DNA from: Alphaproteobacteria bacterium
Lineage (GTDB): Bacteria; Pseudomonadota; Alphaproteobacteria; VGEJ01
Direction of reading: 5' to 3'
NCBI GenBank assembly: GCA_965248765.1
Contig: CBDFKF010000003.1
Location: forward strand, 386,257-450,256
Length of the DNA: 64,000 nt
Part shown: positions 9,318 to 50,546 of the stretch, in pieces
Numbering within the stretch: position 1 is the first letter of the stretch
Layout: each line of letters begins with the position of its first letter
Made by a program: the position numbers and the translations under genes
The notes under the pieces: model-generated
Told to the model about the DNA's origin: nothing
Databases searched by the model: none
The model's input: the letters and a program-made list of their open reading frames with translations, nothing else

Positions 9318-9452
9318 ATGCCACGTGATATCGGCGAATGGCTTGAAGGGTTGGGTCTCTCCAAGTACGCGCCCGCGTTCGCCGAACAGGAGATCGCTCT
9401 GCGCGATGTGGTGCGGCTGATGGCCAAGGCACTGCTCGAGGAGTTGGGTTGA
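9318..9452 (+). CDS. 44-aa SAM-domain-like micro-ORF
   Basis: MPRDIGEWLEGLGLSKYAPAFAEQEIALRDVVRL resembles the N-terminal SAM domain of adenylate/guanylate cyclases. Its stop overlaps the next ATG (TGATG). Could be a gene remnant. Confidence 0.3.
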   Translation: MPRDIGEWLEGLGLSKYAPAFAEQEIALRDVVRLMAKALLEELG

Positions 9453-10368
9453 TGGACCGCGACTACCCGCGCGATCTGGTCGGCTACGGCCGCAAGCTGC
9501 CGCGCGCCCAATGACCGGGCGGGGCGCGGATCGCCCTGCAGATCTCACTCGCCTACGAAGCCGGCGGCGAGGCCAGCGTCCTGCATGGCGATTCGGGATC
9601 CGAGGGCATGCTGACCGATATCGGGTTCCCGGCCGTGGAGGGCCAGCGCAGCATCCATGCCGAGGGCTCGTTCAACTACGGCAGCCGCCGTGGTATCTGG
9701 CGACTGCTCAAGATCTTCGAGGAGCGCGAAATCCGCGTCGGTGTGCTTGCGGTCGTCATGGGTCTGGTGCGCAACCCCGAGGTTGCCCAGGCCATGGCGG
9801 AGACCGGCCATGAGATCGTCAGCCATGGCTGGCGGTGGATCGACTACCAGGATGTGCCCGAGAAGGTGGAGGCTGAGCACATCCGGCTCGCGGTCGAAGG
9901 GATCGAACGGGTCTGTGGCAAGCGGCCGGTGGGCTGGTTGACCGGGCGCCCGGGTCCCAACACGCGCCGGCTCGTGGTCGAGGAGGGCGGCTTCCTCTAC
10001 GACCGCGATGCGCTCGACGATGAGGTTCCCTACTGGGTCGAGGTCGCGGGCAAGCCGCACCTCGTGATCCCCTATTCCTATGAGACCAACGATAACCGGT
10101 TCAACGAGAACAGCGGCTTCAACACCGCCGATGACTTCTTCCAATACATGCGCGATGCCTTCGACGTGCTCTACGCCGAGGGCGCGGACGAGCCGAAGAT
10201 GCTATCGCTCGGCATCCACGACCGGCTGATCGGCCGGCCCGCCAAGTCGCTCGGCCTGGCGCGCTTCCTCGATCATGTGTGCTGCGCCACGACAAGGTGT
10301 GGATCTGCACCGGCGAGGAGATCGCCCGCCACTGGATGGCGGCGCACCCCTACCGCCCCACCGCGTAA
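9452..10368 (+). pseudogene. polysaccharide deacetylase (PuuE/allantoinase-type), disrupted
   Basis: In-frame TGA at 9512-9514 inside the motif RAQ-*-PGGARIA, where Trp is expected. A 2-bp (tg) insertion near 10284 shifts the C-terminus (HV(L)RHDKVWICTGEEIARHWMAAHPYRPTA is in another frame). The domain is otherwise complete. Confidence 0.7.
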
Positions 10369-10432
10369 ATGCGGTTCCACGACACCCAGCCCGGTGCGGG
10401 GTATCCCACCGAAGGTCGGTGATCGCGCGGGA

Positions 10433-11239
10433 TCATGGATCGCCTGTCTGAGCGCGGATGGCGGCGGCATGGGCTTCCAGTTCCGCCGCCGCGGCGTCGC
10501 GCTCGACCTCGCGAAGCAGCCTGGCGTAATCGTCGAGGCTCTTGAGGAGGTTCGGGTCGTCCGGGCCGAACACCGCCTCTAGGATCGCGAGCGCGCGCTG
10601 GTAGAGGGCCTCGGCCTCATCGAAGCGGCCTTGTGCGCGATAGACGCCGGCGAGATCGCCGAGACTCACCGCGACATGGGGGTGACCCGGCCCGAGTGCG
10701 CCCTCGCGACTGGCGAAGACGCGTAGGAAGAGCGGCTCGGCCGCCGCGTGCTGCCCTTGGGCAACGTGGACTAGCGCCAGGATATTGAGGGCCTTGGTCA
10801 CGTCCGGGTGGTGCGACCCAAACGCGGCCTCGAGCAGGGCCAGCGCACGGCGAGCCAGCGGCTCGGCCTCCGCGTAGCGGCCTTGGGCGCGGTAGAGCTC
10901 GGCCATGTTGTCGAGGGTTCGGCCGACGTCGGGGTGTTCGTGTCCCAGCGCCTGTTCGGCGATCGTCAGGGTGCGGACATAGGCCGCCTCGGCCTCGGCG
11001 TAGCGCTCTTGCGCCTTGTAGAGCAGGGCCAGGTTGTTGAGCAGCGCCGCCGTGACCGCGTGGTCGGAACCGAACTCCGCCTCGCTTAAGTGCAGCGCCT
11101 CCTCGGCATGGGCCTCGGCCGCCTCATAATCGCCGGCGGCGAAGGCCCCTGAGAACCGCTCGTGCGCCGCCAAGAGCTCGGGCGACTGCCCCAGCGCGGT
11201 TAGCGGCCATAGCGCGAGGCACAGCAAGCCCGCCGCCAA
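10433..11239 (-). CDS. secreted tetratricopeptide-repeat protein
   Basis: Signal peptide followed by multiple TPR units (LNNLALLYKAQERYAEAE..., RAQGRYAEAEPL...). Confidence 0.7.
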   Translation of the reverse strand: MAAGLLCLALWPLTALGQSPELLAAHERFSGAFAAGDYEAAEAHAEEALHLSEAEFGSDHAVTAALLNNLALLYKAQERYAEAEAAYVRTLTIAEQALGHEHPDVGRTLDNMAELYRAQGRYAEAEPLARRALALLEAAFGSHHPDVTKALNILALVHVAQGQHAAAEPLFLRVFASREGALGPGHPHVAVSLGDLAGVYRAQGRFDEAEALYQRALAILEAVFGPDDPNLLKSLDDYARLLREVERDAAAAELEAHAAAIRAQTGDP

Positions 11240-19445: not shown

Positions 19446-20820
19446 ACGATATGTCCGGTTTATGTACCAGACGATCTGTCCGGATTTAGAAGCTCTCCAG
19501 GCTATGGAGGGTTTGGATGCGCCGGACAGAGCAGTTGCAGGGACTGAGATTGATGAAGTTCGAGGAGGTTTACGGCCGCACCCATCGGGGTTGCTTGAGC
19601 CAAGCCGAGGCGGCGGAGGTTCTCGGCGTTTCAGAGCGCACCTTCCGGCGCTGGCGCGACCGCTATGAGGCGGACGGCGCGGAAGGGCTCTACGATCGCC
19701 GTCTGGGCCGGGTCTCGGCGCGGCGCGCGGCGGTCGACGAGGTGACGGCGCTGTTGGCGCTGTTCGACACCCGCTACTGGGACTTCACCGCCAAGCACTT
19801 CCACGAGAAGCTGGTCGCGGACTATGCCTTCAAGCGCAGCTACAACTGGGTGCGGCTGAGCTTGCAGGCCCATGGGCGAAGACGGGCGGCGCCCAGGCGC
19901 GGGGCGCACCGGCGCAAGCGGCCGCGCCGCGCGCTGCCCGGCATGATGCTGCATCAAGACGGCTCAAGCCACGCGTGGGTCCCCGATCAGTGGTGGGACC
20001 TGATCGTCACCATGGACGACACCACCAGTGAGATCTACTCGGCCTTCTTCGTCGCCGAAGAGGGCACGATGTCGAGCTTTCAGGGGGTGTCCGAGGCGAT
20101 CCGGGCCAAGGGGCTGTTCTGCTCGCTCTATGCCGACCGCGCCGGCCACTACTGGCACACCCCTGAGGCCGGCGGCACGGTCGACAAGGACAATCCGACC
20201 CAGTTCGGCCGCGCCCTGGCCCAGCTCGGCATCGAGCTGATCCCGGCCTACTCGCCCGAGGCAAGGGGGCGCTCGGAACGCATGTTCGCCACCCTGCAGA
20301 AGCGCCTGCCCCAGGAGCTCAGGCTCGCCGGCATCACCGACATGGCCCAGGCCAACCGCTTCCTCAAGGAGCTCCACCTGCCAGGCCACAACGCCCGCTT
20401 CGCGGTGCCGCCGGAAGCCGAGGGCACCGCCTTCGTGCCCTTCGCCGGTACCCTCGACGACATCCTCTGCGTGCAGCAGGAGCGCACCGTCTCCAACGAC
20501 AACACCGTGCGCTACAAACGCCTGGTGCTGGCGATCCCGCCCGACCGCCATCGCCGCCACTACGTCAAGGCAAGGGTCCGGGTCCACGAATACCCCGACC
20601 GCACCCTCGCCGTCTTCCATGGGCCGCGCTGCCTGGCCCGATACCAGGCCGACGGATCGCCCATCAACACAAGCCACAGACAGGCCGCGTGATCCGCTTC
20701 GACGCGACCGGCCAGTGGATAAGGGGACGGCCGCTCCGCGCCCGACCCCTTATCCACTGGCCCAACAACCACAACTGAAGCGGTCAATTCATATGGTACA
20801 TAAACCGGTCAATTCAGTTT
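19446..20820 (+). mobile_element. ISNCY-family insertion sequence (about 1.37 kb)
   Basis: Imperfect terminal inverted repeats TGTCCGGTTTATGTACCAGA (19449-19468) and TGACCGGTTTATGTACCATA (rc of 20792-20811) flank a single transposase gene. A 16-bp perfect hairpin (20708-20762) lies in the 3' non-coding part. Confidence 0.75.
19517..20692 (+). CDS. ISNCY family transposase
   Basis: 391 aa. N-terminal HTH (LSQAEAAEVLGVSERTFRRWRDRY) followed by a DDE catalytic core typical of ISNCY/IS1202-group transposases. Confidence 0.8.
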   Translation: MRRTEQLQGLRLMKFEEVYGRTHRGCLSQAEAAEVLGVSERTFRRWRDRYEADGAEGLYDRRLGRVSARRAAVDEVTALLALFDTRYWDFTAKHFHEKLVADYAFKRSYNWVRLSLQAHGRRRAAPRRGAHRRKRPRRALPGMMLHQDGSSHAWVPDQWWDLIVTMDDTTSEIYSAFFVAEEGTMSSFQGVSEAIRAKGLFCSLYADRAGHYWHTPEAGGTVDKDNPTQFGRALAQLGIELIPAYSPEARGRSERMFATLQKRLPQELRLAGITDMAQANRFLKELHLPGHNARFAVPPEAEGTAFVPFAGTLDDILCVQQERTVSNDNTVRYKRLVLAIPPDRHRRHYVKARVRVHEYPDRTLAVFHGPRCLARYQADGSPINTSHRQAA

Positions 20821-23407: not shown

Positions 23408-24412
23408 CTAGCGGCTGAGCTCGCGCCTTACGGTCTGTGCAAGCCCGTCGCCGTCGAGACCATAGTGTCGGTAGAGATGTGTCGGTGGGCCGAGGAGGAT
23501 ATATTCGTCCGGCACGCCGATCCGGACCAGACGCACGCCGGCACCGGCCTCGGCCAGTACCTCGGCTACGGCGGAGCCGAACCCGCCGGTCACGTTGTGC
23601 TCTTCGGCCGTGAACAACACAGCCTGGTCCTTGGCCGCCTCGAGGATGACGGCGCGATCGATGGGCCGGATCGAGTACAGGTCAACGACACGCAGCGCGA
23701 TCCCGTCGTCGGTGAGGATCGCGGCCGCATCGCGCGAAGCGCGGACGAGGTTGCCGATGGCGAATACGGTCGCATCGCGCCCATCACGCAGCACGTTCGA
23801 GCCGCCGATCCGCCAAGTGGGTGGCGCATCGTACACGTCGGCCTCGCGGCCGCGGCCCACCCGGAAATAGATCGGCCCGTCGTGGTCGATCGTGGTCCGC
23901 AACGCGGCCCTGATGGCGTTGGCATCGCACGGCGCCATCAGCGTCAGGTTGGCCATGGTCCGCAGCACGCCAATGTCCTCGTTGCTGTGGTGCGACGTAC
24001 CGTAAAACCCCATGGCGATACCGGAATGGGTGCCGACCATGCGCACCTTCAGGCGCGGATAGCAGATGTCGTTGCGGATGTTCTCGCAGCCCATGAGGGC
24101 GAGGAAGAACGAATAGTTCGAGATGTAGGGCGTGAACCCGACCGTCGCGAGCCCGGCGGCGGCGCCGATCATGTTGCGCTCGGCAATGCCGAAATTGTAG
24201 TAGCGATCGGGGAAGCGCGCGCCGAAGTTGTTGACCCGCGTCGGCCCGCCGAGATCGGCCGTCAGCACGACGATGTCGTCACGACCCGCATCGGCCATGT
24301 CGATCAGCACGTCGCCGGTAGGCAGCGCCTTCGACAGATCGAGGGCGCCGACCATGTCCCAGGATTCGGCGTCGAAGCCGGGACCGACCGTGGTGCCCGC
24401 CACCTCAGCCAC
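23408..24412 (-). CDS. transketolase, C-terminal subunit
   Basis: Pyrimidine-binding and C-terminal transketolase domains (IVVLTADLGGPTRV, GIAERNMIGAAAGLA, GTHSGIAMGFYGTSHH). Confidence 0.85.
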   Translation of the reverse strand: MAEVAGTTVGPGFDAESWDMVGALDLSKALPTGDVLIDMADAGRDDIVVLTADLGGPTRVNNFGARFPDRYYNFGIAERNMIGAAAGLATVGFTPYISNYSFFLALMGCENIRNDICYPRLKVRMVGTHSGIAMGFYGTSHHSNEDIGVLRTMANLTLMAPCDANAIRAALRTTIDHDGPIYFRVGRGREADVYDAPPTWRIGGSNVLRDGRDATVFAIGNLVRASRDAAAILTDDGIALRVVDLYSIRPIDRAVILEAAKDQAVLFTAEEHNVTGGFGSAVAEVLAEAGAGVRLVRIGVPDEYILLGPPTHLYRHYGLDGDGLAQTVRRELSR

Positions 24413-25056
24413 CGTCGTCGAGCCCCCCTTGCGATCTCCGCCAACGCGCGGTCCCTATCGTCGGGTCCGAGGAAGACGAGATGCCATTGCCAGGTGCCTT
24501 CCATGAACGAGACGCCCTTGCCGGCAACGGTGTGCGCCAGCACGACCCGCGGGCCATCGCCCGGCGCGTTCAGCGCCTGATTGAGCGCGGTGAGGACGGC
24601 GTCGAGGTCATGACCGTCCTCGAGCTCGATCACGCGCCATCGGAACGCGCGCCACTTGTCGGCCAGCGGGCGGCTATCCATGACCTCCGCGGTCGGTCCG
24701 TCCGAGCCGACGGTGTTGATGTCGACGATGGCGACCAGGTTGGCAAGCCGGTAGTGGCCGGCCGACATCGCGGCTTCCCAGACCTGCCCCTCGCACATTT
24801 CGCCGTCGCCCATGAGACAGACGACGCGGGCCGGTGAGCCCCGCGCTGCCAAGCCCAGGGCCATGCCGACCGAGACCGAGAGGTTGTGGCCGATCGACCC
24901 GGACGAGAAGTCCGCCCCAACCACCTTGCGCATGTCGGGGTGATCTCCGAGCGGACTGCCAAGGCGCGTGTAGGAGTCGAGCACCTCTCTGGGGAAGAAG
25001 CCGAGATCCGCCAGCACCGGATAAAGGCCGATTGCGGCATGGCCCTTGCCCATCCA
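24304..25056 (-). pseudogene. transketolase N-terminal subunit, distal part (interrupted by IS1182-family element)
   Basis: Begins mid-domain (GKGHAAIGLYPVLADLGFF…GDGEMCEGQVWEAAM, the TPP-binding GDG motif). The first 69 codons lie at 26616-26822 on the other side of the IS. Confidence 0.8.
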
Positions 25057-26612
25057 GACCGTGTGGAAACTCTGGGTGGCGGGGATGGAGGTTTAGGTAA
25101 CCATGATTTGCGGCGATCCCACGTAATCTGGCGGTTTGGCGCCGGTAGCCCTGTGGAAGGGGCTCCAGGCCTCCGTGGATCGATGTGCGGCGCTCGATTT
25201 TGGCCTGATTCCCGTCTCATGCCCTCGCGGCGGCGATCAAGGCGGGAACACCTACCAGCGAGATCGCGCGGCGGATGTTGTAAGCCAGCGCCGTGATGCT
25301 GAACTCGCCGCGCACGTTCTCCAGCCGCCGGGTCAGGAAGGCACCCTGGCCCATCCATTGTTTGATTGAGCCGAAGGGATGCTCGACGCTTTCACGGCGC
25401 GCATCGAGCAGCTCCGGGCGGGCCGCCAATCGTTCTGCCATGCGCTCCAGGATCGCTTCGGCGCTTGCGCTTGCTGTGTAGCGCCAGGCGTTGGCCGTCG
25501 GGGCAGATGTAAATGTCCTCGCCGCCGTCATAGCGGAAGCGTTCCTTGGGAAAGAGCCCCTGGCTCACCGTGGATCCGCGCTGGGGCTTGGGCACATGCG
25601 GCACGACGCCGGCATTCTCGCAGGCCTCGATATCCTCGATCTTGAAGTAGCCCGCGTCGGCGACCGCGTCGATCCGATCGACGGCCAGGTTCCGACGGGC
25701 CACCACCGCCGTCTCGGCCAATAGACCGAGATCGCTGACCTTGTTATGGACCTGCTGCTCGGCGATCAGTTTGTGCTTGGCGTCCACGGCGATCTGAATG
25801 TTGTAGCCGACACCGACCCGGGTCTCGGCGTACATCGCCCGGCTGTCCGGATCCGTCAAAGAGAGCTGGTCCTCGCCACTCGCAGCCAGCGCGTCTCGAT
25901 GTTCCTCAAACCGCTCACGCCGCCCTTGGATCGCAGCGATCTTCTCCTGGATATGCTCCACCTCGCCGCCGCCGGTGCCGCCCTCGTCTTGCTCGTCGGC
26001 CTCGTCGAGCCGGTCGAGATAACGCGACAACCTCTCGTCGCTCTCGGCCAACGCCTTCGCCAGCTTCGCTTTGGTGAAGTTCCGCTTCCGGCTGTTCACT
26101 GCCTTGATCCGTGTACCGTCAACCGCCACCAGCTCGCGTCCGAACAGCTCCAGTTCGCGGCATAGCCTCACGAACTCCCGAAACACCTGTCGGAAGGCCG
26201 CCCGATTGATCCGCCGGAAATCGGCGATCGTCTTGAAGTCTGGCGACAAACGCCGCAACAGCCAGATCACTTCGAGATTACGCTTGCTCTCTGCCTCCAG
26301 CCGGCGGCTCGAACGTACCCGATTGAGATAGCCGTATATGTAGAGCTTCAGCAGGTCCGCCGGATCGTAGCCGGGACGACCTATCGCCTTCGCCGCGGCG
26401 CGCTCGAAACCAGCGGCCGCTAGGTCCAAACCATCCACGAAGGCATCGATGAAACGGACCGGGTTATCCCGGCCCACGTAATCGTCCACTGCTTCCGGCA
26501 GAAGCAGAACCTGAGAGCGGTCAACGCCAGGAATGTGTCTCATGGCGGACCCTAACATCGCCATGAGACGGACGGAATCCCCCGCCACCCAGAGTTTCCA
26601 CACGGTCTGCAT
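25057..26612 (-). mobile_element. IS1182-family insertion sequence (about 1.56 kb) inside the transketolase N-subunit gene
   Basis: Perfect 30-bp terminal inverted repeats CAGACCGTGTGGAAACTCTGGGTGGCGGGG at 25058-25087 and rc at 26583-26612. The flanking sequences (ttcaccATG | gATGggcaag) indicate a target duplication of about 3-4 bp. The host reading frame is restored across the junction (DRDRFTM-GKGHAA). Confidence 0.8.
25217..26564 (-). pseudogene. IS1182 family transposase (frameshifted near 25500)
   Basis: N-terminal motifs RSQVLLLPEAVDDYV…YDPADLLKLYIYGYLNRVRSSRRLE…DFKTIADFRR and C-terminal VEHPFGSIKQWMGQGAFLTRRLENVRGEFSITALAYNIRR are in two different frames. The upstream part is read as a fusion with the transketolase fragment in the ORF track. 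Confidence 0.7.
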
Positions 26613-26822
26613 GGTGAAGCGGTCGCGATCGGTCCAATCGGGCTGATCGGCGCGGATGTTCAGAAGCTGGTAGTAGAGCACCGTCACGAGTTCGGCCATG
26701 GAGAACGCCGAGCCATAGTGACCCGAGCCGCAGATGTCGGTGAGCCGCACGGTCTCGCGGCGGATCATCTTGGCTTTCTCGACCAGCTCGGCCTTGGCGA
26801 TGTTGCGAACGGGGCGCGACAT
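26613..26822 (-). pseudogene. transketolase N-terminal subunit, 5' fragment (first 69 codons)
   Basis: ELVEKAKMIRRETVRLTDICGSGHYGSAFSMAELVTVLYYQLL…PDWTDRDRF is the canonical transketolase N-terminus, ending at the IS inverted repeat. Confidence 0.8.
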
Positions 26823-26916
26823 ATCGTTCTATCCGCGGGGGGTAACGGGCTAAGAGTGTGCCAGAGCGGATCAGAAAAGTGGACCAAGCGCGTAAGCGGA
26901 ACCCCAGGAGGGTGGG

Positions 26917-28262: not shown

Positions 28263-29096
28263 GTGCCGACTCAAGAAGAAAAGGCGACGGCGTTCCAGGA
28301 ACTGCACACGCGTTCCGGTGCCTTCATCGTGCCGAACCCCTGGGATGCCGGCACCGCGCGGATGCTTGCCGCGTTGGGCTTCGAAGCGCTGGCGACGACC
28401 AGCTTGGGTGTCGCCAACATGCTGGGCCGCAGTGATGGCACCGGGGCGGTCACCGCCGACGACATCGTCGAGAATTGCCGGATGATCACCGCGGCGAGCC
28501 CGCTGCCGGTCACCGCGGATTTGGAGAACTGCTTCGCCGATGAGCCGCGCGCCGCGGCCGAGATGATCGGCCGTGCCGCGGAAGCCGGCATCGTCGGCGG
28601 CTCGATCGAGGATTTCACTGGCGATCCGCGCAAGCCCATCTATGAATTCGACCACGCCGTAGAGCGAGTGCAGGCGGCGGTGGAGGCGGCACGCGCGCTG
28701 CCGTTTTCCTTCGTGCTGACGGCACGGGCGGAGAATCTACTGCGCGGCCGCGACGACCTCGACGACACCATCCGGCGCTTGCAGGCCTTCGAGGCGGTCG
28801 GCGCCGATGTCCTCTACGCGCCCGGCACCCGGGACCTCGACACGCTTCGCACCGTTGTTGCCGCCGTCACCAAACCGGTGAACGTCGTCATGGGCCTCGC
28901 CGATCCGGCGATCACCGTCGATCAGCTCTCAGCGGTCGGCGTCCGGCGAATCAGCGTCGGCGGTGCGCTGTCGCGCATCGCCCTGGCCGCCTTCCTGAAG
29001 GCGGCGCGCGAGATGCAGGACGACGGCCGGTTCACGTTTATCCGCGACATGGTCCCCGTGAGCGAGCTTAGAGACATGTTCCAGGATGAGGACTGA
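28263..29096 (+). CDS. isocitrate lyase/PEP mutase family protein
   Basis: PEP mutase/ICL superfamily (FIVPNPWDAGTARM…, EDF…KP). Start set at GTG 28263 after an AGGAGA ribosome-binding site. Confidence 0.7.
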   Translation: MPTQEEKATAFQELHTRSGAFIVPNPWDAGTARMLAALGFEALATTSLGVANMLGRSDGTGAVTADDIVENCRMITAASPLPVTADLENCFADEPRAAAEMIGRAAEAGIVGGSIEDFTGDPRKPIYEFDHAVERVQAAVEAARALPFSFVLTARAENLLRGRDDLDDTIRRLQAFEAVGADVLYAPGTRDLDTLRTVVAAVTKPVNVVMGLADPAITVDQLSAVGVRRISVGGALSRIALAAFLKAAREMQDDGRFTFIRDMVPVSELRDMFQDED

Positions 29097-30185
29097 AACG
29101 ATGGCGGATGCGCTGCGCACACATCTTCAAGGCATTCTCGATGACTACGTCGAGCGTGGGATCATCGGCGTCTCACTGGCGGTGAGCGTGCCCGGCGAAG
29201 GCGAGATTCTGCAGGCGAGCGGTGTTGCCGACCGAGCTGCCGGCTCGGCCATGACCCCCGATCATCTCTTTCGGATCGGCAGCAATACCAAGACCTTCGT
29301 CGCCGCGGCGTTGCACCAGCTCATCGCCGAGGGCGGCGTCGATCTCGACGCGCCGGTCAGCCGCTGGTTCCCCGAGCTGCCCAAGGCCGACGTGATCACC
29401 GTTGGCGCGCTGATCAATCACCGCAGTGAGCTGCCCGAGTTTGAGTACGACATTCCGATCATCTCCGACCGCGTATGGACGCCCGAGGAGGGTGTCGCGT
29501 TCGCCTTCGAGGTCGGCGAGCAGAAGGAGCCCGGCGGCGAGATGGCATACAGCAACACCGGCTACGTCCTGGCCGGCATGATCATCGCGGCCGAGACCGA
29601 CGCGCCACTGTCGCGGCGTATTCGCACGCACATCTTGGAACCGTTGGGCCTGCACCACACCTGGATCGGCTCCGATGAGGCCTTCCCCGTTGAGCGGCTG
29701 GCGCGGGCTACATGCACCCCGACGAGGACGGCCACCGTTTATGGGACCTGCGCGATGTGCCGGACCAGGGAGACGAGCCGCGGGATGCGACCGAGTGGTT
29801 CCCGCTCTCCGGCGCCGGCGCCGCCGGCGATATGATCTCGACGCCGCGCGATACCGTCCACTGGCTCCAGGGCCTGTTCGGCGGTCGGGTGCTCGACGAG
29901 CGGGGCCAATGGGAAATGACCGGCAATCTGATGCCGGCGAGCTTCCCGGGCACGCCGTTCTCGCACAACGGCCACGGCATCCTGGTCTTCACGTTCGGCG
30001 ACGACCTCGCGGTCAAGGGCCATGGCGGCGGCATGCCGGGCCACGTCACCTGGATGGCCCACGATGAGCAAAGCGGCACCACCGCCGCGCTGTTTCAGAA
30101 CTCCTGTGCGAGCGACATGCATGCCTTCCAGAGGGGCGGCATTCGCGAGCCCTTCGAGGCGGTCTTCCGCACCGCGCGCGCCTGA
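29086..30185 (+). CDS. serine hydrolase (beta-lactamase-related family), frameshifted near 29700
   Basis: SxxK motif (RIGSNTKTF), YSNTGY motif and HGGG(M)PG motif. The reading frame shifts by +2 between ...FPVERLAR and GYMHPDEDGH, creating two ORFs (29086-29835 and 29712-30185). Confidence 0.7.
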
Positions 30186-32183: not shown

Positions 32184-32948
32184 TGGCAGGGCGTCTGGAG
32201 AATCGGATCGCGATCGTCTGCGGCGCGGCGGGCGGGCATCGGCGCGGGCATCGCCGAGGTGTTTCTTGAGGAGGGCGCCAAGGTCGCCATCGCCGATCGC
32301 GAGGCGGCGGCCGGCAGAGCCACCGCGGAGCGCCTTTCGGCCAAGGGCGAGACCGCGTTCGTTGCCTGCGATGTTAGCAGCGCCGATGAGGTGACGGCGC
32401 TGGTCGCCACCGTGCTCGACCGCTTCGGCTGCATCGACATCCTGCATCAGAACGCCGGCATCTTCCCCGAGACCGCGCTCGCCGACATCTCGGTCGACGA
32501 ATGGGACGCGGTGCTGGGCGTCAACCTGCGCGGCTGCTTCCTCACCGCCCAGGCCTGCCTTGGCCCCATGAAGACACAAGGCTACGGGCGTATCGTCTTC
32601 ACCTCCTCGATTACCGGACCGCGAGTCACGGCACCCGGTCACGCCCACTATGCGGCGAGCAAGGGCGGCATCAACGGGCTGATCCGCTCGGCCGCGCTCG
32701 AGTTCGCGCCCTTCGGCATCACCGTCAACGGCGTCGAGCCCGGCAACATCCTGACCGAGGGCATGCGCGAGCACCGCAGCGAGGCATTCATCCGCCAGAT
32801 GGAGCGTTCGGTGCCGTTGGGGCGCCTCGGTACCCCGCGCGATATCGCCGAGGCCTGCGCCTTCCTCGCCTCCGAGGCCGCCGGTTACATCACCGGCACG
32901 ACGCTGATCATCGACGGCGGCCAGATCCTCTCCGAAAGCAAGGTCTAG
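32184..32948 (+). CDS. SDR family oxidoreductase, frameshifted in the Gly-rich cofactor motif
   Basis: The body is a canonical SDR (NAG, S…YxxxK, PG motifs). The N-terminus reads AIVCGAAGGHRRGHRRGVS*, whereas the correct frame gives CGAARGIGAGIAEVFLEEGAKVAIADRE. The indel lies in a gcggcgggcgggc run near 32235. Confidence 0.7.
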   Translation, partial: WQGVWRIGSRSSAARRAGIGAGIAEVFLEEGAKVAIADREAAAGRATAERLSAKGETAFVACDVSSADEVTALVATVLDRFGCIDILHQNAGIFPETALADISVDEWDAVLGVNLRGCFLTAQACLGPMKTQGYGRIVFTSSITGPRVTAPGHAHYAASKGGINGLIRSAALEFAPFGITVNGVEPGNILTEGMREHRSEAFIRQMERSVPLGRLGTPRDIAEACAFLASEAAGYITGTTLIIDGGQILSESKV

Positions 32949-33666: not shown

Positions 33667-34047
33667 TCAAATCTGTACACGCAGATGCCCGGCCCGGATA
33701 TCGCGCCAGACATCCTCGATGTCGCCGCGCTCGCTCATGCGCAGCGTGGCGATGCCGCGGCCGTTTTCGATGCGGGCGGACTCGGGCGCCACCGAGCCGA
33801 TCACGGCGTCGAGGTCGCGCAGCTCATGGACCCGCAGGAACGGTGCGCCGGCGTTCAACCGGTCGAGCCGGACATGGGCCGGATCGAGGCTCAGTTCCTC
33901 GTCATAGGCCTCGCCGAAGAAGGGCACCCGGCGGATCCGCGCGCCGGTCGACCAGATCACCTCGACGGTGCGCTCCTTGGCGTCAACTGAGTTCGGGGCA
34001 AGTTCCGCCGCCCGGCGCATCGCCGGCAACTCGATGGTGTGTTTCAT
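33667..34047 (-). CDS. phage head-maturation/prohead protease-like N-terminal fragment
   Basis: 126 aa. Located directly downstream of the portal gene, where lambda-like phages encode the protease. ERTVEVIWSTGARIRR…VRLDRLNAGAPFLRVHE resembles HK97/U35-type prohead proteases. Truncated. Confidence 0.4.
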   Translation of the reverse strand: MKHTIELPAMRRAAELAPNSVDAKERTVEVIWSTGARIRRVPFFGEAYDEELSLDPAHVRLDRLNAGAPFLRVHELRDLDAVIGSVAPESARIENGRGIATLRMSERGDIEDVWRDIRAGHLRVQI

Positions 34048-34067
34048 AGGGTGTCCTTTCGGAAAGA

Positions 34068-35610
34068 TCAGATGTCTGAGACCTCGCGCAAGGACCGCTC
34101 GGTCTCGTCATCGTCGGGCGGATCGCCTGCGTCGTTGGCTTGCGCGACGCCGGTCTTGGTGACCCGCCTCGGGTCGGAATCGAGCACGATGCCAAGCTCA
34201 TCGAGCTTCTCGTTCATGGCCGCGATCTCGGCCAGCACCGCGTCGGGGTTGCGGCCCTTGCGCGCGATCGCCTCGGCCAGGGTCGTGGTGCCCGAGCGCA
34301 GCGCCAGCAGATCGGCCATGGCGTCTTTCTGCGGGTCGACCGCCTCGAACTCGGGCGGCGACCAGTCGACGCGCACGATGGGCTCGGGGACATGCCCCGC
34401 CGCCCAGGCGGCCTCGGTAAACCAGCGCCACACCGGCGTACAGAACATCGGGATGAAGAGCTGCCACTGGACCGCATCGATCATGCGGCGGAACTCAACC
34501 AGCCCGGCCCGGATCGAGGAGTAGTTGACCTGACTTAGATCGCCGGTCAGCAGCTCGTAGGGCACCCGGAACCCGGCGCCAACGGTATGCAGGCTCGCCC
34601 GCTTGTACTCGGCGTAGCCGCCGGTGGCGGCCGGCTGGTTGAAGCGGATCTCCTTGCTGCCGCGGGCATAGGCGATGAGGCCGGGCTCGAACTGCTCGAC
34701 ATGGTTACCGTCGGCGTCCACCACCGTCGGCGCGATGCCCTGCTCGGCCTCGTCTGCGCCGAGCACAATGGCGGTCACGCAGGCCTCGGTCTTCTTGCGC
34801 ACGATCTCGGCGACCTCGTAGTCGTCGACATCGCGAAGCGCCCGGATGACCGGCGCGCCCCACGGCACGCCGCGGGCCTGGGTGCGCTGCTTCTCGTAGA
34901 CATGGGCGATCTCGGCCGCCGGCACCGGCTTGCTCTTGAAGCCGCCGCGTCCGCCGCCGACGAGGGCGCCGAAGGCATCGCCCGGATGACGGTCATGGAG
35001 CCAGTAGGCGCGGCGCTTGCCCAGCGCGTCGAACTCAATCCCCTGCACCGCCTGACGACCGTTACCGAGGGCGCCGGTCTTGCCTGCATCCAGAAAATCC
35101 GCCTCGAGCACCTGCAGTTGGACCGGGACCGCGAGGCCGTCGGAAGCCCGGCGGGCGCGCCGGCGCACCAGCACCTCACCGGCTTCGACCATCTCGTGGC
35201 ACGCAAGCGTCTGCAGGCCGTAGAAATCGAGCTGACCGTCACTGTCACAAGCGCCGGTCCAGTCCTCCCACAGCTTGTTGACGGTCTTGTCGAGCGGCCT
35301 CGTCGCCGGTCGCGGCGCGCGGCATGATGCCGGCGCCGACGATGTTGTTGACCAGCACCGCCACCGCCTTGGCGGCGTGCGGGTTGTTGCGCACCAGATC
35401 GCGCATGCGGTCGCGCAGGAGCGCGCCGGCCACCGCGATCTCACCGTCGGCCGAGCTCGCCGCCGCACGCCAGCCCTCGGTACGCCGGCCCCTGGCCGCG
35501 CCCTCGTAACCCCGGGTGAGCCCCTCGAAGGCCTGGCGGGCCAAGAGACGCCGCGTCGCCGCACGGGGCGATACCGTGGCGATCGCCCGGTCGAACCAGC
35601 TCGCGCCCAT
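34068..35610 (-). pseudogene. phage portal protein, lambda (gpB) family, frameshifted near 35300
   Basis: The C-terminal 400 aa carry lambda-portal motifs (…QVNYSSIRAGLVEFRRMIDAVQ…). The N-terminal 121 aa (MGASWFDRAI…GDEAAR) are in another frame (ORF 35245-37086) and join at …GDEAAR | PLDKTVNKLWEDW. Start overlaps the gpW stop (ATGA). Confidence 0.75.
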
Positions 35611-35819
35611 CAGCGGTCGCCCCGCTTGAACCGGGCATAGCCCACCATCGGAGATGCCTTGCCAGTGCTGCCGATGGCGCGCTCGATGGTGCGGATACGG
35701 GCCAGCAGGTCCTGGGCGGAGCCGTATTCGACGGACTTGCCGTCGTAGCTCACGCGCAGCGTGCCGCTGGCGTAGGCGCGCCGCAGCGCCGCCAGCTCCG
35801 TCTCGGTCCAGTCGCTCAT
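35610..35819 (-). CDS. phage head-tail joining protein gpW family
   Basis: 69 aa. MSDWTETELAALRRAYASGTLRVSYDGKSVEYGSAQDLLARIRTIERAI matches the gpW fold family, and it is placed between terL and portal as in lambda. Confidence 0.6.
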   Translation of the reverse strand: MSDWTETELAALRRAYASGTLRVSYDGKSVEYGSAQDLLARIRTIERAIGSTGKASPMVGYARFKRGDR

Positions 35820-35821
35820 TC

Positions 35822-37844: not shown

Positions 37845-38370
37845 GGGCCTCCAGAACCTTCTGCATGGCGTGCGTATCGAGGCCGAGATCGGCCGCCATC
37901 AGGGCGGCGACGCGGGCCGGCCAGTTGACCCAGGCATCGCGCTCACGGCGCGCGAGGCGGAACACCTCGACCGTCGCGTGGGCCCGGTCGACCACTTCCT
38001 CGCGCAGGCGCTGCACCTGAATGCGAGCCCGCTGCGCCTTGGCGATCTCGTGCGCGGTGCGCGCCTGGGTGAAGGTTGCGGCCCCTTGCGGGGCGGGTTC
38101 GGTTGCGGCGGGCGGTGGTGCTCCGGCAGCCTCGCCACCGGGCTTGTCCGGATCGGAGGCCCGTGGGGTCTCGTCAGCTTGTGCGGGCTCGTCCTCGGGC
38201 GGCTCGGACCGGCGCGCCGGATCGGTTCGAGCGTCCCATTGGGCGTCCGCCTTGTCCGGATCGAGGGTGCCGTCGGGCTCGGGCGTGAGCCGGCCCGCGC
38301 GGATCGCCTTCATCACCGCGACGTGGCTCACCCCGCGCCGGCGCGCGTATTCCCGCAGCGATACGCCCAT
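37792..38370 (-). CDS. phage terminase small subunit (HTH-containing)
   Basis: N-terminal HTH LREYARRRGVSHVAVMKAIRAGRL. Overlaps the terL start by about 50 bp. 192 aa. Confidence 0.55.
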   Translation of the reverse strand: MGVSLREYARRRGVSHVAVMKAIRAGRLTPEPDGTLDPDKADAQWDARTDPARRSEPPEDEPAQADETPRASDPDKPGGEAAGAPPPAATEPAPQGAATFTQARTAHEIAKAQRARIQVQRLREEVVDRAHATVEVFRLARRERDAWVNWPARVAALMAADLGLDTHAMQKVLEAHVRDHLNELAEIRPEFR

Positions 38371-41299: not shown

Positions 41300-41710
41300 A
41301 CACCGAAACTCTGAAGACTGGCGCAGTTGCGTGGTCCCGAAGAGAGCGCAGGCCGTGCCTTTCCATGACGGGACGACTATAGTCCTTGCGCAAAGGTCAC
41401 ACTCAAATCCCTGTGCACTAAAGGGTTTGTTGCCGGCCCGCGGAGTTGCGTGTCTGGTTGCGACACGACGTGGCGGTGCCGGAATTCCTCAACGAGTTCG
41501 CTTCGCTTGACGATAAGGTAGGGGGTTCTATTGTGCCCGGCACTAGCCCGAACATTCCCCTCTCTGAGTGGAATAACCGACGTGACCAGGCAATGCTGAC
41601 GGGTCCCCGTTGGCGTTCGTGTGGTACGCGGCGATGCAGCCCGTTGCGCATCGACATTGCCGCGAGGGATCTGTTCCGACGTTGGAATAAATTTTAGAGG
41701 AGTATGGAGA

Positions 41711-42850
41711 ATGAGAAAAATCGGGCCCGACTCAATCAGAGTGGCCATCGCCGGCGTCGGCAACTGCGCGAGTTCCCTTGTCCAGGGGTTGGAATACTAC
41801 CGGGGCCGTAACGAGGAGTCATTCAGCGGTCTTATGAACGCAAAGATCGGCAACTGGGGGCCGAGCGACATCGAGATCGTGGCCGCCTTCGATATCGACC
41901 GCCGCAAGGTGGGTAAGTTGGTGGAGGAGGCGATTTTCGCCCAACCCAACTGCACCAAGGTCTTCCAGAGCACCCTGCCGGTATCCGACGTGGTGGTGCG
42001 GATGGGGCCGGTTCTCGACGGAGTGGCGCCTCACATGGCCGACTATCCCGATGACGAGGCTTTCCGACCTTCCAACGAGCAACCGGTCGATGTTGTCCAG
42101 GTCCTCAAGGAGGCCGAGGCCGAAGTTCTGGTCTGCTACATACCGGTAGGTTCGGAAGAGGCGGTTCGGCACTATGCCCGGGCCTGCCTGGAGGCCGGAG
42201 TGGCCATGGTCAACTGCGTTCCGGTTTTTATCGCCTCCGACCCCGAATGGGTTGAGAAATTCTGTCACGCCGGCCTGCCCATCGTCGGCGACGACATCAA
42301 AAGCCAGGTCGGCGCCACCATCGTGCATCGAACCCTGACCCGCCTGTTCGGTGACAGGGGCGTGCCACTTGACAGAACCTATCAGTTGAACACGGGCGGC
42401 AACACGGACTTTCTCAACATGAAGGCCCTCGATCGACTGAAGTCCAAGAAGGTTTCCAAGACGGAATCCGTGCAGTCGCAGTTGGACGAACGTCTGGAAT
42501 CCCGGGACATCCATATCGGACCGTCCGATTACGTGCCGTGGCAGGACGACAACAAGGTCGCTTTCATCCGCATGGAGGGGCGCGGCTTCGGGGACGTGCC
42601 GTTGGAACTGGAACTCAGACTGTCGGTCCAGGATTCCCCCAACAGCGCGGGCGTGGTCATCGATGCCATCCGTTGCGCCAAGCTGGGGCTGGAGCGCGCA
42701 ATCGGCGGCTCCTTGGAAGCCGCTTCCGCCTATTACATGAAGAGCCCGCCGAAGCAGATGCGTGATTCGTTGGCCTATGAATTGACCGACGCATTTATTC
42801 AAGGCGGAGATGTCGGCGAGGGGACATCTCGAACGGACGCCGATGACTAG
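41711..42850 (+). CDS. ino1: myo-inositol-1-phosphate synthase (bacterial/archaeal type)
   Basis: NAD-binding N-terminus IAGVGNCASSLVQGLEYY and conserved catalytic region (…NTGGNTDF…). Start at ATG 41711 after a GGAG ribosome-binding site. Local GC is about 58-60% against 68% background. Confidence 0.85.
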   Translation: MRKIGPDSIRVAIAGVGNCASSLVQGLEYYRGRNEESFSGLMNAKIGNWGPSDIEIVAAFDIDRRKVGKLVEEAIFAQPNCTKVFQSTLPVSDVVVRMGPVLDGVAPHMADYPDDEAFRPSNEQPVDVVQVLKEAEAEVLVCYIPVGSEEAVRHYARACLEAGVAMVNCVPVFIASDPEWVEKFCHAGLPIVGDDIKSQVGATIVHRTLTRLFGDRGVPLDRTYQLNTGGNTDFLNMKALDRLKSKKVSKTESVQSQLDERLESRDIHIGPSDYVPWQDDNKVAFIRMEGRGFGDVPLELELRLSVQDSPNSAGVVIDAIRCAKLGLERAIGGSLEAASAYYMKSPPKQMRDSLAYELTDAFIQGGDVGEGTSRTDADD

Positions 42851-43665
42851 GTCGTGGACTCATAATGCCTGAGCCACAGACGTATGGAAGCAAGTGCCAC
42901 GGCGGCGAGGAAATTTCTGGCGAGTTTGTCGTAGCGCGTGGCGACGCGTCTGAAGTGTTTGATCTTGTTGAAGAAGCGCTCAACGAGGTTGTGTTGGCGG
43001 TAGAGCTCCGGAGCAACGTAGCGTGGCATCCGTACATTGCTCTGCGAGGGGATGTGGGCGGTGGCGCCGGTGTTCTCGATCAGCTCGATGAGGCAGCGGG
43101 CACTGTAGCCGCGGTCGGCGATGACATCACGCGCCAGGCGCAGTCCTTCGAGCAGCACCGGGGCTGTGGTCTTGTCGGAGGCCTGGCCGGCAGTGAGCAG
43201 CAAGCGCACCGGCAGGCCCCTGGCATCCACCACCGTGTGGATCTTGGTGCTCAGTCCTCCACGAGAACGACCGATGGCGTGATCCGGACCCCCTTTTTTC
43301 CCCCGGCGGCGTGTTGATGCGCGCGTACAATCGAGGAGTCGATGAGGTGAAGAGAGGCGGGCGATTTCTCGGCGAGAGCCTCGAACACACGCAGCCACAC
43401 GCCGGCCTTGGCCCAACGATTGAACCGGTTGTAGACCGTCGTGTGGGGCCCGTAGCGCCTCGGCAGATCGCGCCACGGCGAGCCCGTGCGCAGGGTGTAG
43501 AAGATACCGTCCACCACACGGCGGTCGTCCACACGCGGCACTCCGCGTGGCTTGTTCGGAAGCAACGGCGCGATGATCGCCCACTCCGCGTCGCTCAGAT
43601 CGAAACGTGCCATTCTCAAGCTCCCACAATTTGGGAACTTGAATCATATCTCCCCGTAAAGGGGA
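42840..43665 (-). mobile_element. IS5-family (IS427-group-like) insertion sequence immediately 3' of ino1
   Basis: Two overlapping transposase frames with an A6G slippery site. Boundaries are approximate because the inverted repeats were not confidently resolved. Confidence 0.65.
42847..43619 (-). CDS. IS5 family transposase OrfAB (programmed -1 frameshift)
   Basis: orfA (43251-43619, MRMARFDLSDAEWAIIAPLLP…) and orfB (…GKKGGPDHAIGRSRGGLSTKIHTVVDARGLP…DDE…). The GGGGAAAAAAGGGGG heptamer region lies at about 43293-43307 on the coding strand. Confidence 0.75.
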
Positions 43666-43674
43666 ATCCCCTTT

Positions 43675-44559
43675 ATGGGTACAAGACCTAGACGCGACGG
43701 TCGGGCTGCCAACAATGGTCCGGGCGGTGGCAACACAGTCCGGACTGTGGACGCGCCGTGGGTGGAGCTGCTGCTCGCGCTCCACTGCCAGGTGCGGAAC
43801 GCGCTCGCGAAGGCCGGCCGCGGCAGCACCGGGGCCACCAACCCCAAGGGCGACGAGGTCAAGGTCTTCGACCTCGCCGCCAACGACGCGGCAGTGGCCT
43901 GCCTGAAGGCGGCGGCGGTTCCGCTGATTGTCCAATCGGAAGAGGCCGAGCCCCTGGAAATCGGCCGCGACCGGCCCCGCTATCGACTGATCCTCGATCC
44001 CGTGGACGGCTCCGACAACCGGGCGCGCGGGCTGCCGTGATCGGCCTTGTCTTGCGCCGTGCTGCCGGTCGACGCCCCCTTGCATCCCGACTGGGTCGAG
44101 GCGGCCCTGGTCGGGCCGCTCGAGGAGGAAACGCCCCTGATCGCGCTCAGGGGCTCCGGCGCCTGGCGCGGGAACGACCGGCTCGAATCCTCGGACGTTC
44201 GCGGCATCGCCGAGGCCATGATCTCGGTCGAGCTCAATCACTTTTCTTCGCCACCGGGCTTCGCCCGCATGATGGCCGCCGCCAGGGGGGTGCGGTGCTA
44301 CGGTTGCGCGTCCCGAGCCCTCTCCCTGGTTGCCGCTGGCGCCACCGACGCCCATGTGGACGTGCGTCGCCGTCTGACGGCGGAAAGCTATCTCGCCGCC
44401 GCGCGGCTGGTGACCGAGGCGGGGGGATGGATTGGCGGCCTCGACGGCACGCCCCTGGCGGAGGCCGAAGGCTTGACCGACCGCATCTGCTTGATCGCGG
44501 CGGCGAGCCGGGATCTGTACGACGAAATCGTGGAGGTCTTGGGCGATGAAGGACACTGA
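43675..44559 (+). pseudogene. inositol monophosphatase (IMPase/FBPase) family phosphatase with an in-frame TGA
   Basis: DPVDGS motif (metal-binding DPIDGT). TGA at 44038-44040 interrupts the conserved block GLP-*-SALSCAVL. The downstream part (44041-44559) is in the same frame. Confidence 0.7.
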
Positions 44560-45911
44560 GTTGGCGAACGCGGCGCCGGAGGTGGCGCTGATATTGGCCG
44601 CCGGGCTGGGGATCGCGGCTTCGTCCGCAAATCAACACGCCGAAGCCCCTGATCAGGGTGCTCGGACTGAGCCTCGCCGAAAGGGTCATCTGCACGTTGC
44701 TGGCTGCCGATGTTTGGCGGTTCCTCGTCACCCTAGGCCATGAGGCCGAAAGGGTCAGGGCGCATTTTTCCGATATCGCCCGGCGTCGCGGTGTCACGGT
44801 CGACTTCGTCGAAGTCGAGGGCTGGGAGCGGGGTAACGGCGCCAGCGCCCTTGCGGCTAAGGCTCACATCGGCGACGCGCCTTTCTTCGTGGTCATGACC
44901 GACCATCTTTTCGACCCCGGGATTGCGGGGGCACTGACCGACGACCCGCCCGCACCAGGAGAAATGTGCCTCGCCGTGGACTGTGACAAGGACGCCATCT
45001 TCGATCTCGACGATGTCACCCGAGTCAAGATCGACGACGGACGCATTCAGGCGATCGAGAAAAACCTTGGCGATTGGGATGCAGGCGACGTCGGGGTCAT
45101 GCTCTGCACGTCGGGCCTGTATGAGGGTCTCGAGCGCGCGGCGGCAAGAAACGAGCATGGGCTTTCCGACGGGCTCAGGGAACTGGCGGGCGAAGGCCGG
45201 GCGAGAACCGTCGATGTGACTGGAATGTCATGGCTCGACGTGGACACGCCCGACGCATTGCGTGAAGCCGAACGACGTCTGATGCGCGACCAGGGTCGCA
45301 AGACCCGGGACGGGCCGGTGTCGCGCCATCTCAACCGGCCGGTTTCCCGGTGGTTGAGCCGCTATCTGGTGCGCACAACGGTGACGTCCAACCAAATCTC
45401 TCTGATCTCGTGGATGCTGTCGTGCGTTGCCGCAGGATTGATGGCTGTGAGCGGTTATCCTGCTCTGGCCGCCGGTGGCGCCTTGGCTCAACTGGCCTCG
45501 ATCATCGACGGCTGCGATGGCGAGATCGCCCGGTTGAAACGATCCCAGAGCGAGTTTGGCGGCTGGTTCGACGCGGTCCTCGACCGGTATGCCGATGCCT
45601 TTCTCTTGTTCGGCCTGATGTGGCACGAATATGCCGCGACCGGCACGAATCTACCCGTCGTGCTGGGGTTCGCGGCGATTATGGGGTCGTTCCTGAACAG
45701 CTACACGGCCGACAAATACGACGGCCTGATGGCCAGGAAATTCCCTGGCGTTGTCTATCTCAGGCTGGGCCGGGACGTCCGGGTTTTCGTCATCTTCCTC
45801 GGCGCCCTTTTGAATCAGCCCTTGCTCACCCTGGGCGTTATTGCATTAGTGATGAATGTGGAAGTGGTCCGGCGGATCGGTGTTAGTTCCCGCGCGGACG
45901 AAAAACGATGA
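44546..45911 (+). CDS. bifunctional nucleotidyltransferase / CDP-alcohol phosphotransferase (IPCT/DIPPS-like), frameshifted in the N-terminal G-loop
   Basis: N-terminus MKDTELANAAPEVALILAAGLG then frame +1 gives SRLRPQINTPKPLIRVLG (NTP-transferase motif). The C-terminal membrane domain has DGCDGEIARL…G…D…D, the CDP-alcohol phosphotransferase signature. An indel sits in a ggggatc run near 44615. Confidence 0.75.
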
Positions 45912-46953
45912 AGCACCCCCCTGAATTCCGCGGGTTCGAGAGAAGCCGGGAATGACCGGCGGGACGGGATCGGGACCGTCGTCAGCTTCTCCAAAGGACA
46001 CGACGAGGACAACCCAGGCACCCTGGATCCTGAGATGCGGGAATTCGCTCTCGGGATCTACCGTCTCGACGACCGTCCGATTGTAGTTACCGACGTGGAT
46101 CGGGTGCTGGACATCACGGTCCAATAAGAATGGATCAAATATCAGCCAATCGGGCACCAATGTTGTGAGACGATGAGAAAGCCAGGAATTGAGATCGGGG
46201 ACAGATTGGTGAAGCTTGGGGGGCTGAAACTGTTTTGATCGTGCAGCGGTTCGTCAATCCTCCTGGTCTGCCCCGGCATGTTGAGCTGAAAGCCCAGGGG
46301 CATCTCGACCGAAAAATCACGCTGTCCGTATCAACCATCATGGACCGGAATTTGTACCGGCGGGTCGAGAAACACTGATCAAGGATTGTGGTATTATACA
46401 AAGAAGGGGTACGAAAAATTTGCCATGTCTGACGTTGCCGATCGGAAAGCGTTCGTTCAAGGTGTGATGGGTAAGGTGGATTCAACGATTGAGAGTTCGC
46501 TTCCAGTCTTTTCGGGGGGTGTCAACGGCGGAGCAAAAAGGGACCCCGTGGCGGAGTAAAAAGGGACCACTTGGCGGCTGCGGGCTTGTCCTCGTAGTCC
46601 ATGGGAGGGCCCCGCGCGCGACGCGGCGTGCCCACAACAGGCTGACGCGGCGGCGCGCGCACGGTCTGTCTCGCCGCGGCCGATGACTGGCTCAACCAGA
46701 ACGAGACCGACGAGCGCGCGCACAAGAGCCGGGGCTGGCTCAATCAACCGGCAACCGAGAAGCAGATGCGCTACCTCCCGCCGGCATGCCGCCACGACTA
46801 CGGCATGAACCGTTATCAGGCATCGGCGCTGCTCACCTTCACCTTCAACAAGCAAGCGATCCGCCGGCTGGTCATGAACGCGGCGGGCGACCAGAGAGAG
46901 GCCGCGTGATGGTTGTCCCACGGCCGCACTCACTCACTCCCATTGGAGTCGTG

Positions 46954-50531: not shown

Positions 50532-50546
50532 GAGGGCTCGTAATTT

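Follow-up and report, generated by a model that had tools for sequence, protein, structure and literature searches.

The decay of bacterial genes through nonsense mutation, short insertion or deletion (indel), disruption by insertion sequences (IS) and survival as leftovers is a known picture, and the PuuE-like, IMPase, IPCT/DIPPS and CheW protein families are likewise known. The set of genes for myo-inositol-1-phosphate synthase (MIPS), IMPase and IPCT/DIPPS, which serves the synthesis of di-myo-inositol phosphate, is known from hyperthermophiles. IPCT/DIPPS has also been reported in deep-sea Thaumarchaeota, i.e., outside the hyperthermophiles (PMC7265257, PMC10773090). The present analysis concerns a 64,000-nucleotide stretch of contig CBDFKF010000003.1 (hereafter the window), in which in-frame TGA codons interrupt a PuuE-like deacetylase gene and the IMPase-family gene of an inositol-phosphate cassette, and in which an open stretch follows the TGA stop of the IPCT/DIPPS-like gene of the same cassette. 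With a probability of about 0.86, the in-frame TGAs are genuine pseudogene lesions produced by ordinary gene decay, since the genes that contain them carry independent further lesions, and since close relatives have intact sense codons at these positions. Nonsense pseudogenes of recent origin were among the explanations put forward in the first-pass annotation of this DNA, and this is the one that the evidence favors.

The window has a GC content of ~66%. Its nearest matches are alphaproteobacterial, with metX and metW ~75% identical to Azospirillum replicons in a plasmid collection; in a scan of GTDB genomes, the PuuE loci closest to the window gene came from alphaproteobacterial genomes and showed at most 69% identity. 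Further broken genes were located by segmenting the window according to codon usage (Viterbi) and then scanning the repaired translations against Pfam. The comparison of individual lesions relied on a small number of relatives: L082, a metagenome contig that encodes an intact protein of 307 aa (P0121) 90% identical to the PuuE-like gene product; L081 (1.7 kb) and L084 (6.1 kb), contigs from two independent samples that are 98-99% identical to the cassette of the window; L083, a more distant relative of the cassette (84% identical); and P0001, an intact IMPase of 302 aa, which was recovered by protein search and is 98% identical to the IMPase of the window. The coordinates of the features are collected in Table 1.

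The PuuE-like deacetylase gene

The open reading frame (ORF) of the PuuE-like gene starts with the ATG at 9452 and reads ...GRKLPRAQ*PGGARIALQ... across its interruption, which confirms the first-pass placement of an in-frame TGA within RAQ-*-PGGARIA. The repaired translation matched the NCBIfam profile TIGR03212 over its entire length (1-297/297, E 3.6e-122, 407.1 bits) and also matched Pfam PF01522 (Polysacc_deac_1). Its score is just below the curated equivalog cut-off of TIGR03212 (424.6 bits), and the corresponding cut-off of NF041135 is not reached by the IPCT/DIPPS gene treated below; both genes are therefore named “-like”.

In an alignment with homologs from genome loci, the column of the TGA was occupied by Trp in 17 of 17 sequences, within the conserved motif PxWPGxA, and the corresponding DNA of L082 contains TGG (CAATGGCCGGGC, versus CAATGACCGGGC in the window). 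For this gene, the earlier expectation of a Trp at the interrupted position, altered by a single transition of TGG to TGA, was thus borne out. A second lesion is located 27 codons ahead of the natural stop, where the dinucleotide TG has been duplicated, such that the window reads GTGTG for the GTG of its relatives (GATCATGTGTGCTGCGCCAC in the window versus GATCAC--GTGCTGCGCCAC in L082). Removal of one TG yields LDHVLRHDKVWICTGEEIARHW, the conserved C-terminus of PuuE-like homologs, and the frame switch in the Viterbi segmentation falls at 10278/10279. Owing to this downstream +2 frameshift, readthrough of the TGA would still give a product with the wrong C-terminal 27 residues.

Directly upstream, a 44-aa ORF (9318-9452, plus strand) matches positions 5-46 of the 64-position SAM_1 profile, and its terminal TGA shares nucleotides with the start codon (ATG) of the PuuE-like gene; this ORF appears to be what is left of a longer SAM-domain gene. 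Among the public gene calls on the source contig, two (P0139 and P0241) are exact ORF products of the window. The first of these, P0139 (324 aa, ORF 9608-10579), starts at an internal Met and passes the frameshift of the PuuE-like gene into an unrelated tail.

The inositol-phosphate cassette

The first gene of the cassette encodes an apparently intact MIPS, which matches the NCBIfam profile TIGR03450 from end to end (1-355/355, E 3.1e-139) and is 99% identical to its counterpart in L084. The two genes that follow are both broken.

The IMPase-family gene is severed after its first 13 codons and 2 nt (MSARGHLERTPMT..) by an 837-bp insert. In the intact relative P0001 the corresponding 5' end reads MSARGHLERTPVTSRDGRAANN, and both L081 and L084, which lack the insert, are contiguous across the site. 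The insert is bounded on both sides by CTAG, a 4-bp target duplication that is also marked by the 4-nt overlap of the flanking alignments of L081 and L084. It has imperfect terminal inverted repeats and encodes, in two frames, the transposase domains DUF4096 and DDE_Tnp_1 of Pfam. By these hallmarks, the insert is an IS5-family element, inserted at CTAG within codon 14 of the IMPase gene.

The remainder of this gene contains the second in-frame TGA, and its translation reads ...NRARGLP*SALSCAVL..., as had been described (GLP-*-SALSCAV). The accompanying claim that Trp is expected here, as it is in the PuuE-like gene, does not hold. The site is Leu (GLP-L-SALSCAVL) in P0001, P0002, P0004, P0018, P0042 and P0066, that is, in all of the homologs inspected, and the codon in L081 and L084 is TTA, such that the change is a T-to-G transversion and not the proposed transition from TGG. 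Because the IS separates the start and the first 13 codons from the rest of the gene, readthrough of this TGA would again leave a broken product. The public gene call P0241 (121 aa, ORF 43675-44037) is the piece of the IMPase between the IS and the TGA.

The third gene, IPCT/DIPPS-like, encodes upon repair a protein with the modules NTP_transf_3 and CDP-OH_P_transf, i.e., a cytidylyltransferase fused to a CDP-alcohol phosphatidyltransferase. It matched the NCBIfam profile NF041135 (E 2.7e-68), a Thermococcales equivalog, with 230.9 bits, far below the cut-off of 580 bits. Close homologs are named CDP-L-myo-inositol myo-inositolphosphotransferase in JGI. Near codon 22, the window has GGGG in place of the GGG of relatives (GCTGGGGATC, versus GCT-GGGATC in L081 and L084), and the N-terminus restored by repair of this +1 frameshift, AAGLGSRLRPQINTPKPLI (AAGLGSRLRPQINTPKPLIRVLGL), agrees with P0258 and P0259 and with the intact homologs of 454 aa. 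In total, the cassette has received three independent inactivating events inside 1.8 kb: an IS insertion, a nonsense codon and a +1 frameshift.

The homology between the window and L084 is restricted to positions 41687-46395 (~4.7 kb, 98.6-99% identity), including the cheW stump described below, and the flanks differ. Transposase genes adjoin the cassette in L083 and L084 as well. The confinement of the shared homology to this interval, together with the adjoining transposases, suggests that the cassette segment is mobile or often transferred. Homologs of the cassette at 80-86% identity amounted to 4067 matches in metagenomes (E<=1e-10). These data suggest an inositol-phosphate solute cassette that has been widely transferred among non-thermophilic bacteria.

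The open stretch after the DIPPS stop

The first-pass annotation had described the DIPPS stop (45909-45911) as being followed in frame by about 73 codons with a GC content at third codon positions (GC3) of about 85%. The stop and the open stretch are both present; the tail, however, comprises 71 codons (45912-46124, closed by TAA at 46125-46127), in frame with DIPPS, and its GC content by codon position is 0.67/0.43/0.71 (GC3 0.71). The DIPPS stop is natural: the match to the family profile reached position 415 of 419 at the stop, homologs have lengths of 441-473 aa, and in L084 this TGA also terminates the called gene. In a homolog search with the repaired DIPPS plus tail as query (526 aa), the 120 best matches were of this length, with a query coverage of 86% or less. 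None of these 120 covered the tail, and the coverage corresponded exactly to the portion before the stop. In L083, homology to the window ends at 45879. A C-terminal extension of DIPPS was thus rejected on the basis of homolog lengths and coverage.

The tail has relatives elsewhere. An exhaustive HMMER search with its 71 residues recovered 57 representative proteins at E<=1e-3; these are of many lengths, and the region that aligned with residues 18-70 of the tail is their C-terminal end. The longer of these proteins carry the Pfam CheW domain (PF01584), and the match falls within the last third of that domain. In a BLASTP comparison, the tail was 57% identical to P0381 (E 5e-18). When the 71-aa tail was scanned against Pfam by itself, no match reached E<=0.01, and no other CheW piece was found in the window. 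Judged by homology, the tail is the 3' stump of an unrelated, cheW-like chemotaxis gene, which shares the DIPPS frame by chance, and the in-frame continuation of DIPPS envisaged earlier is thereby dismissed. A minus-strand gene (ORF 45846-46160) was also considered and rejected, since it had no family match and since the CheW match in the plus frame explains the coding-like signal. The junction between DIPPS and cheW is older than the other lesions, because L084 (98.6% identical) shares it.

The cheW origin of the tail had been missed in the first-pass annotation, as had the +2 frameshift of the PuuE-like gene, the IS insertion in the IMPase gene and the +1 frameshift of the IPCT/DIPPS-like gene.

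TGA as a stop codon in the window

A functional recoding would entail local readthrough of TGA, with the production of full-length PuuE and IMPase proteins and of a DIPPS with a C-terminal extension, by means of a near-cognate tRNA-Trp, a suppressor tRNA, selenocysteine or a partial reassignment of TGA to Trp. The TGA of the PuuE-like gene takes the place of a Trp codon and has C as the next nucleotide; UGA-C is a weak termination context, as known from E. coli, and Trp might conceivably be inserted here at a low level. The coding-like GC pattern of the tail after DIPPS would also be in keeping with recoding. However, we consider this explanation highly improbable, since the IMPase site is Leu, neither Trp nor Cys, and since readthrough would leave the +2 frameshift in the PuuE-like product and an IMPase devoid of its start and first 13 codons. 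Moreover, the IPCT/DIPPS-like gene is frameshifted near its own start, and the tail is both absent from all homologs and derived from CheW.

The use of TGA elsewhere in the window argues in the same direction. Among the 16 full-length ORFs, defined as those in which family profiles were matched essentially end to end, TGA is the normal terminator in 9 and the commonest stop; hisC, metX, metW and panE, for example, match their family profiles to the end and terminate in TGA. The first-pass annotation had cited metX, panE and an SDR gene as cases in which TGA clearly serves as a stop. The profile matches of the first two indeed end at their TGA stops, whereas the SDR gene (32259-32948) ends in TAG. 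Reassignment of TGA to Trp was rejected as a candidate, given the Leu in all homologs of the IMPase and the termination of 9 of the 16 full-length ORFs by TGA.

The search for accessory elements gave no indication of a recoding apparatus. Neither a tRNA gene nor an Rfam match was found in the window, and folding predictions for the 64-nt segments behind the three stops did not surpass those of shuffled controls (z-scores: -0.87, +0.61, -0.81). Selenocysteine insertion was rejected because homologs have W or L at the two sites (not Cys or Sec), with downstream z-scores of -0.87 and +0.61 and without an Rfam match. The localised stop-codon readthrough that had been offered as an alternative likewise finds no footing, in view of the Leu site, the lack of a suppressor tRNA, Rfam element or structure, and products that would be broken anyway. 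Four further in-frame TGAs (at 990, 22122, 38996 and 63440) were examined as candidates and set aside as normal stops, each of which separates neighboring genes that share a frame. As a weaker addition to gene decay, low-level near-cognate insertion of Trp at the UGA-C of the PuuE-like gene is possible, yet it would not rescue a frameshifted protein.

Mutations in the organism or errors in the consensus

Alternatively, the point lesions, namely the two TGAs and the short indels, could in part or in full be artefacts of assembly or consensus calling, in which case the genes would be intact in vivo. A number of observations weigh in favor of this explanation and against gene decay. Three of the indels occur in short runs of G, where some sequencing technologies err: GGG to GGGG in the IPCT/DIPPS-like gene, GGGG to GGG in a beta-lactamase-like gene and GGG to GG in a terminase gene, the latter two described below. 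Near-identical IMPase alleles in other public assemblies carry different frameshifts, of the kind seen in long reads of low coverage, at a G6 run in P0066 and P0242 (the contig of the latter is labelled 3x coverage) and at a T7 run in P0243. Such frameshifts probably reflect sequencing errors in long reads and not parallel decay; they show that error-prone assemblies of the lineage exist. Similarly, one homolog from a nanopore metagenome-assembled genome (L001) has a frameshifted PuuE C-terminus, and the source contig is long (804,933 nt), such that a long-read origin is possible. In scans of JGI metagenomes for either allele at both sites, the same TGA alleles were found in no second assembly. 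The ratio of non-synonymous to synonymous changes specific to the window involved too few sites, some of ambiguous polarity, to demonstrate relaxed selection, and consensus errors keep a minor probability for some of the point lesions.

Nevertheless, an origin by error appears unlikely on several grounds. The IS insertions in the IMPase gene and in the gene for the N-terminal transketolase subunit are structural, with target duplication and inverted repeats, and are impossible as base-calling errors. The lesions gather in genes that are already broken (the PuuE-like gene has two, the inositol cassette three), and none was detected in the 16 checked ORFs (17,964 nt, with 135 runs of >=4 nt). 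No indel was observed at any of 85 runs of >=5 nt, and all 14 of the runs of >=5 nt in the 3.9 kb shared with L081/L084 were equal in length. In addition, both TGAs are substitutions and the indel of the PuuE-like gene is a dinucleotide duplication, neither of which is a typical homopolymer error. A hand estimate of the clustering of lesions by spacing was not significant on its own, and the argument thus rests on the multiple lesions per gene and on the structural IS insertions. We infer that the lesions exist in the DNA of the organism and did not arise during consensus calling, and that the products of the affected genes are non-functional.

Under gene decay, the two TGAs would represent nonsense mutations in genes no longer under selection. 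The PuuE-like gene would have lost its function through the change of TGG to TGA at Trp21 and the duplication of TG. In the cassette, the damage comprises the entry of the IS5-family element into codon 14 of the IMPase gene, the change of TTA to TGA and the gain of one G in the IPCT/DIPPS-like gene; the IS insertion probably came first and the point lesions later. The open stretch after DIPPS is a cheW leftover, joined to the cassette before any of the other lesions arose.

Other broken genes, remnants and mobile elements

Apart from the genes described above, at least six further genes of the window are broken: four frameshifted genes, one frameshifted transposase gene and one transketolase subunit gene split by an IS. 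In each of these six genes, one unbroken Pfam match bridges the lesion. Gene remnants were also observed. The overall density is at least eight disrupted genes plus remnants in 64 kb.

In the beta-lactamase-family serine hydrolase gene, PF00144 was matched at 3-310/329 as one stretch over the repaired junction. The Transketolase_N match (7-267/334) similarly spans the insertion junction of the IS1182-like element, whose own transposase gene has a frameshift near 25462; the gene for the C-terminal subunit of transketolase (23411-24412) appears intact. The window also contains an intact transposase gene of the ISNCY family, which represents its third IS type.

Two of the remaining frameshifts are found in a prophage remnant. 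Its lambda-type portal gene is frameshifted near 35295 and, when repaired, matches PF05136 over the full profile (1-354/354), while the GpA large terminase gene has lost one G near 36521, as checked against a second terminase fragment (at 49300-49470). The prohead protease (33670-34047) is truncated after ~126 aa, and the small terminase is putative, being assigned by position, with no family match. The second terminase fragment is located in another mobile region, where it adjoins a frameshifted N6/N4 DNA methylase gene (47876-49126; frameshift near 48442; PF01555 matched at 1-220/221 on the repaired translation). A fragment of a type II/IV secretion ATPase gene lacks most of the protein and contains a TGA; a further TGA (50547-50549) ends the upstream ORF.

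In an additional ORF (52747-53860, minus strand), for which a signal-like N-terminus is predicted, a coding-like signal flanks an in-frame TGA (53599-53601) on both sides. The ORF had no family match, and may be either one broken gene or two genes.

The housekeeping genes checked were full length, including tyrC, hisC, metX, metW, panE, ggt, petA, petB, hemF and others. In summary, the window has three IS elements, of which two lie within genes, along with two nonsense codons and at least six frameshifts; its remnants derive from cheW, SAM-domain, protease and ATPase genes.

Table 1. Positions of broken genes, lesions, mobile elements and remnants within the 64-kb window.
Feature	Position	Strand	Basis
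PuuE-type (allantoinase / polysaccharide-deacetylase family) pseudogene	9452..10368	+	TIGR03212, PF01522, homolog alignments
Nonsense codon TGA for invariant Trp21 (TGG to TGA, G to A)	9512..9514	+	Homologs, L082
+2 frameshift, TG duplication (GTGTG versus GTG in relatives)	10277..10281	+	L082, homologs, Viterbi
MIPS gene, apparently intact, first of the cassette	41735..42850	+	TIGR03450, L084
IMPase gene, first 13 codons + 2 nt, severed from the rest by IS	42810..42850	+	L081, L084, P0001
IS5-family insertion sequence, 837 bp, two-frame transposase	42851..43687	-	Target duplication, inverted repeats, Pfam
Remainder of IMPase-family pseudogene	43688..44559	+	PF00459, NF009321; 98% identical to P0001
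Nonsense codon TGA for Leu (TTA to TGA, T to G at 44039)	44038..44040	+	Homologs, L081, L084
Bifunctional IPCT/DIPPS-like gene, frameshifted pseudogene, natural stop TGA 45909-45911	44546..45911	+	NF041135, Pfam, homologs
+1 frameshift, GGGG versus GGG in relatives, ~codon 22 of IPCT/DIPPS	44608..44611	+	L081, L084
3' remnant of cheW-like gene (last ~50 codons + TAA)	45963..46127	+	HMMER, Pfam CheW, BLASTP
Intact ISNCY-family transposase	19517-20689	+	NF033594, 2-357/368
Transketolase N-terminal subunit split by IS1182-like element (~25061-26611, GTGTGGAAACTCTGGGTGGCGGGG inverted repeats)	24307-26828	-	Transketolase_N
Beta-lactamase-family serine hydrolase, -1 frameshift near 29700 (presumably GGGG to GGG)	29086-30182	+	PF00144
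Prophage remnant: small and large terminase, small ORF, portal, prohead protease	33667-38370	-	PF05136 (portal); small terminase by position
Second large-terminase fragment, 88% identical to the first (36271-36635, -), inverted orientation	49256-49635	+	Sequence comparison
Type II/IV secretion ATPase fragment, TGA 50241-50243 inside	49944-50546	-	Weak T2SSE match, profile 164-236/370

Implications and comparison with known systems

The main import of these findings concerns annotation. The public gene calls treat two pseudogene fragments (9608-10579 and 43675-44037) as proteins, and such calls hide the death of an allantoinase-like gene and of a whole inositol-phosphate cassette. With respect to the genetic code, these TGAs add nothing.

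More tentatively, so high a density of broken genes may point to a phase of decay that affects the whole genome and is driven by IS, in an uncultured lineage (probably alphaproteobacterial) that is losing a horizontally acquired di-myo-inositol-phosphate cassette, although we regard this as rather doubtful. If true, such decay could follow, for example, from a recent niche restriction or population bottleneck, and the cassette would have been caught while being lost. The window would then be a modest example of IS-driven decay combined with the loss of an acquired compatible-solute pathway.

Compared with the systems in which TGA is decoded as an amino acid (genetic code 4 with TGA as Trp, programmed readthrough and selenocysteine insertion), the resemblance of this locus is superficial and consists of one TGA at a Trp position. 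In contrast to those systems, TGA is here the main stop, the second TGA replaces a Leu, and extra frameshifts and IS are present; furthermore, no SECIS-like structure and no suppressor tRNA were found within the window.

The PuuE-like gene resembles PuuE allantoinase, the metal-independent enzyme with a polysaccharide-deacetylase fold, in its end-to-end profile match and in the PxWPGxA motif, which is preserved except at the stop codon. Unlike that enzyme, it scores under the TIGR03212 cut-off and is broken twice, and none of its identified neighbors is a gene of purine catabolism.

The cassette shares with the di-myo-inositol-phosphate gene set its order of Inos-1-P_synth, Inositol_P and an NTP_transferase fused to CDP-OH_P_transf. 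It differs in being flanked by transposase genes, in residing in a probably alphaproteobacterial genome of ~66% GC and in its inactivation, and the product of its intact version is putative, since the match to the Thermococcales equivalog lies far below the cut-off (231 against 580 bits).

The closest likeness is to the disrupted (unitary) pseudogenes of bacteria. Family homology extends over both sides of each lesion, close relatives lack the lesions, and several independent lesions per gene or operon are accompanied by IS target duplications and neighboring remnants. From the disrupted pseudogenes catalogued in bacterial genomes under relaxed selection or IS expansion, the broken genes of this window differ in nothing of substance.

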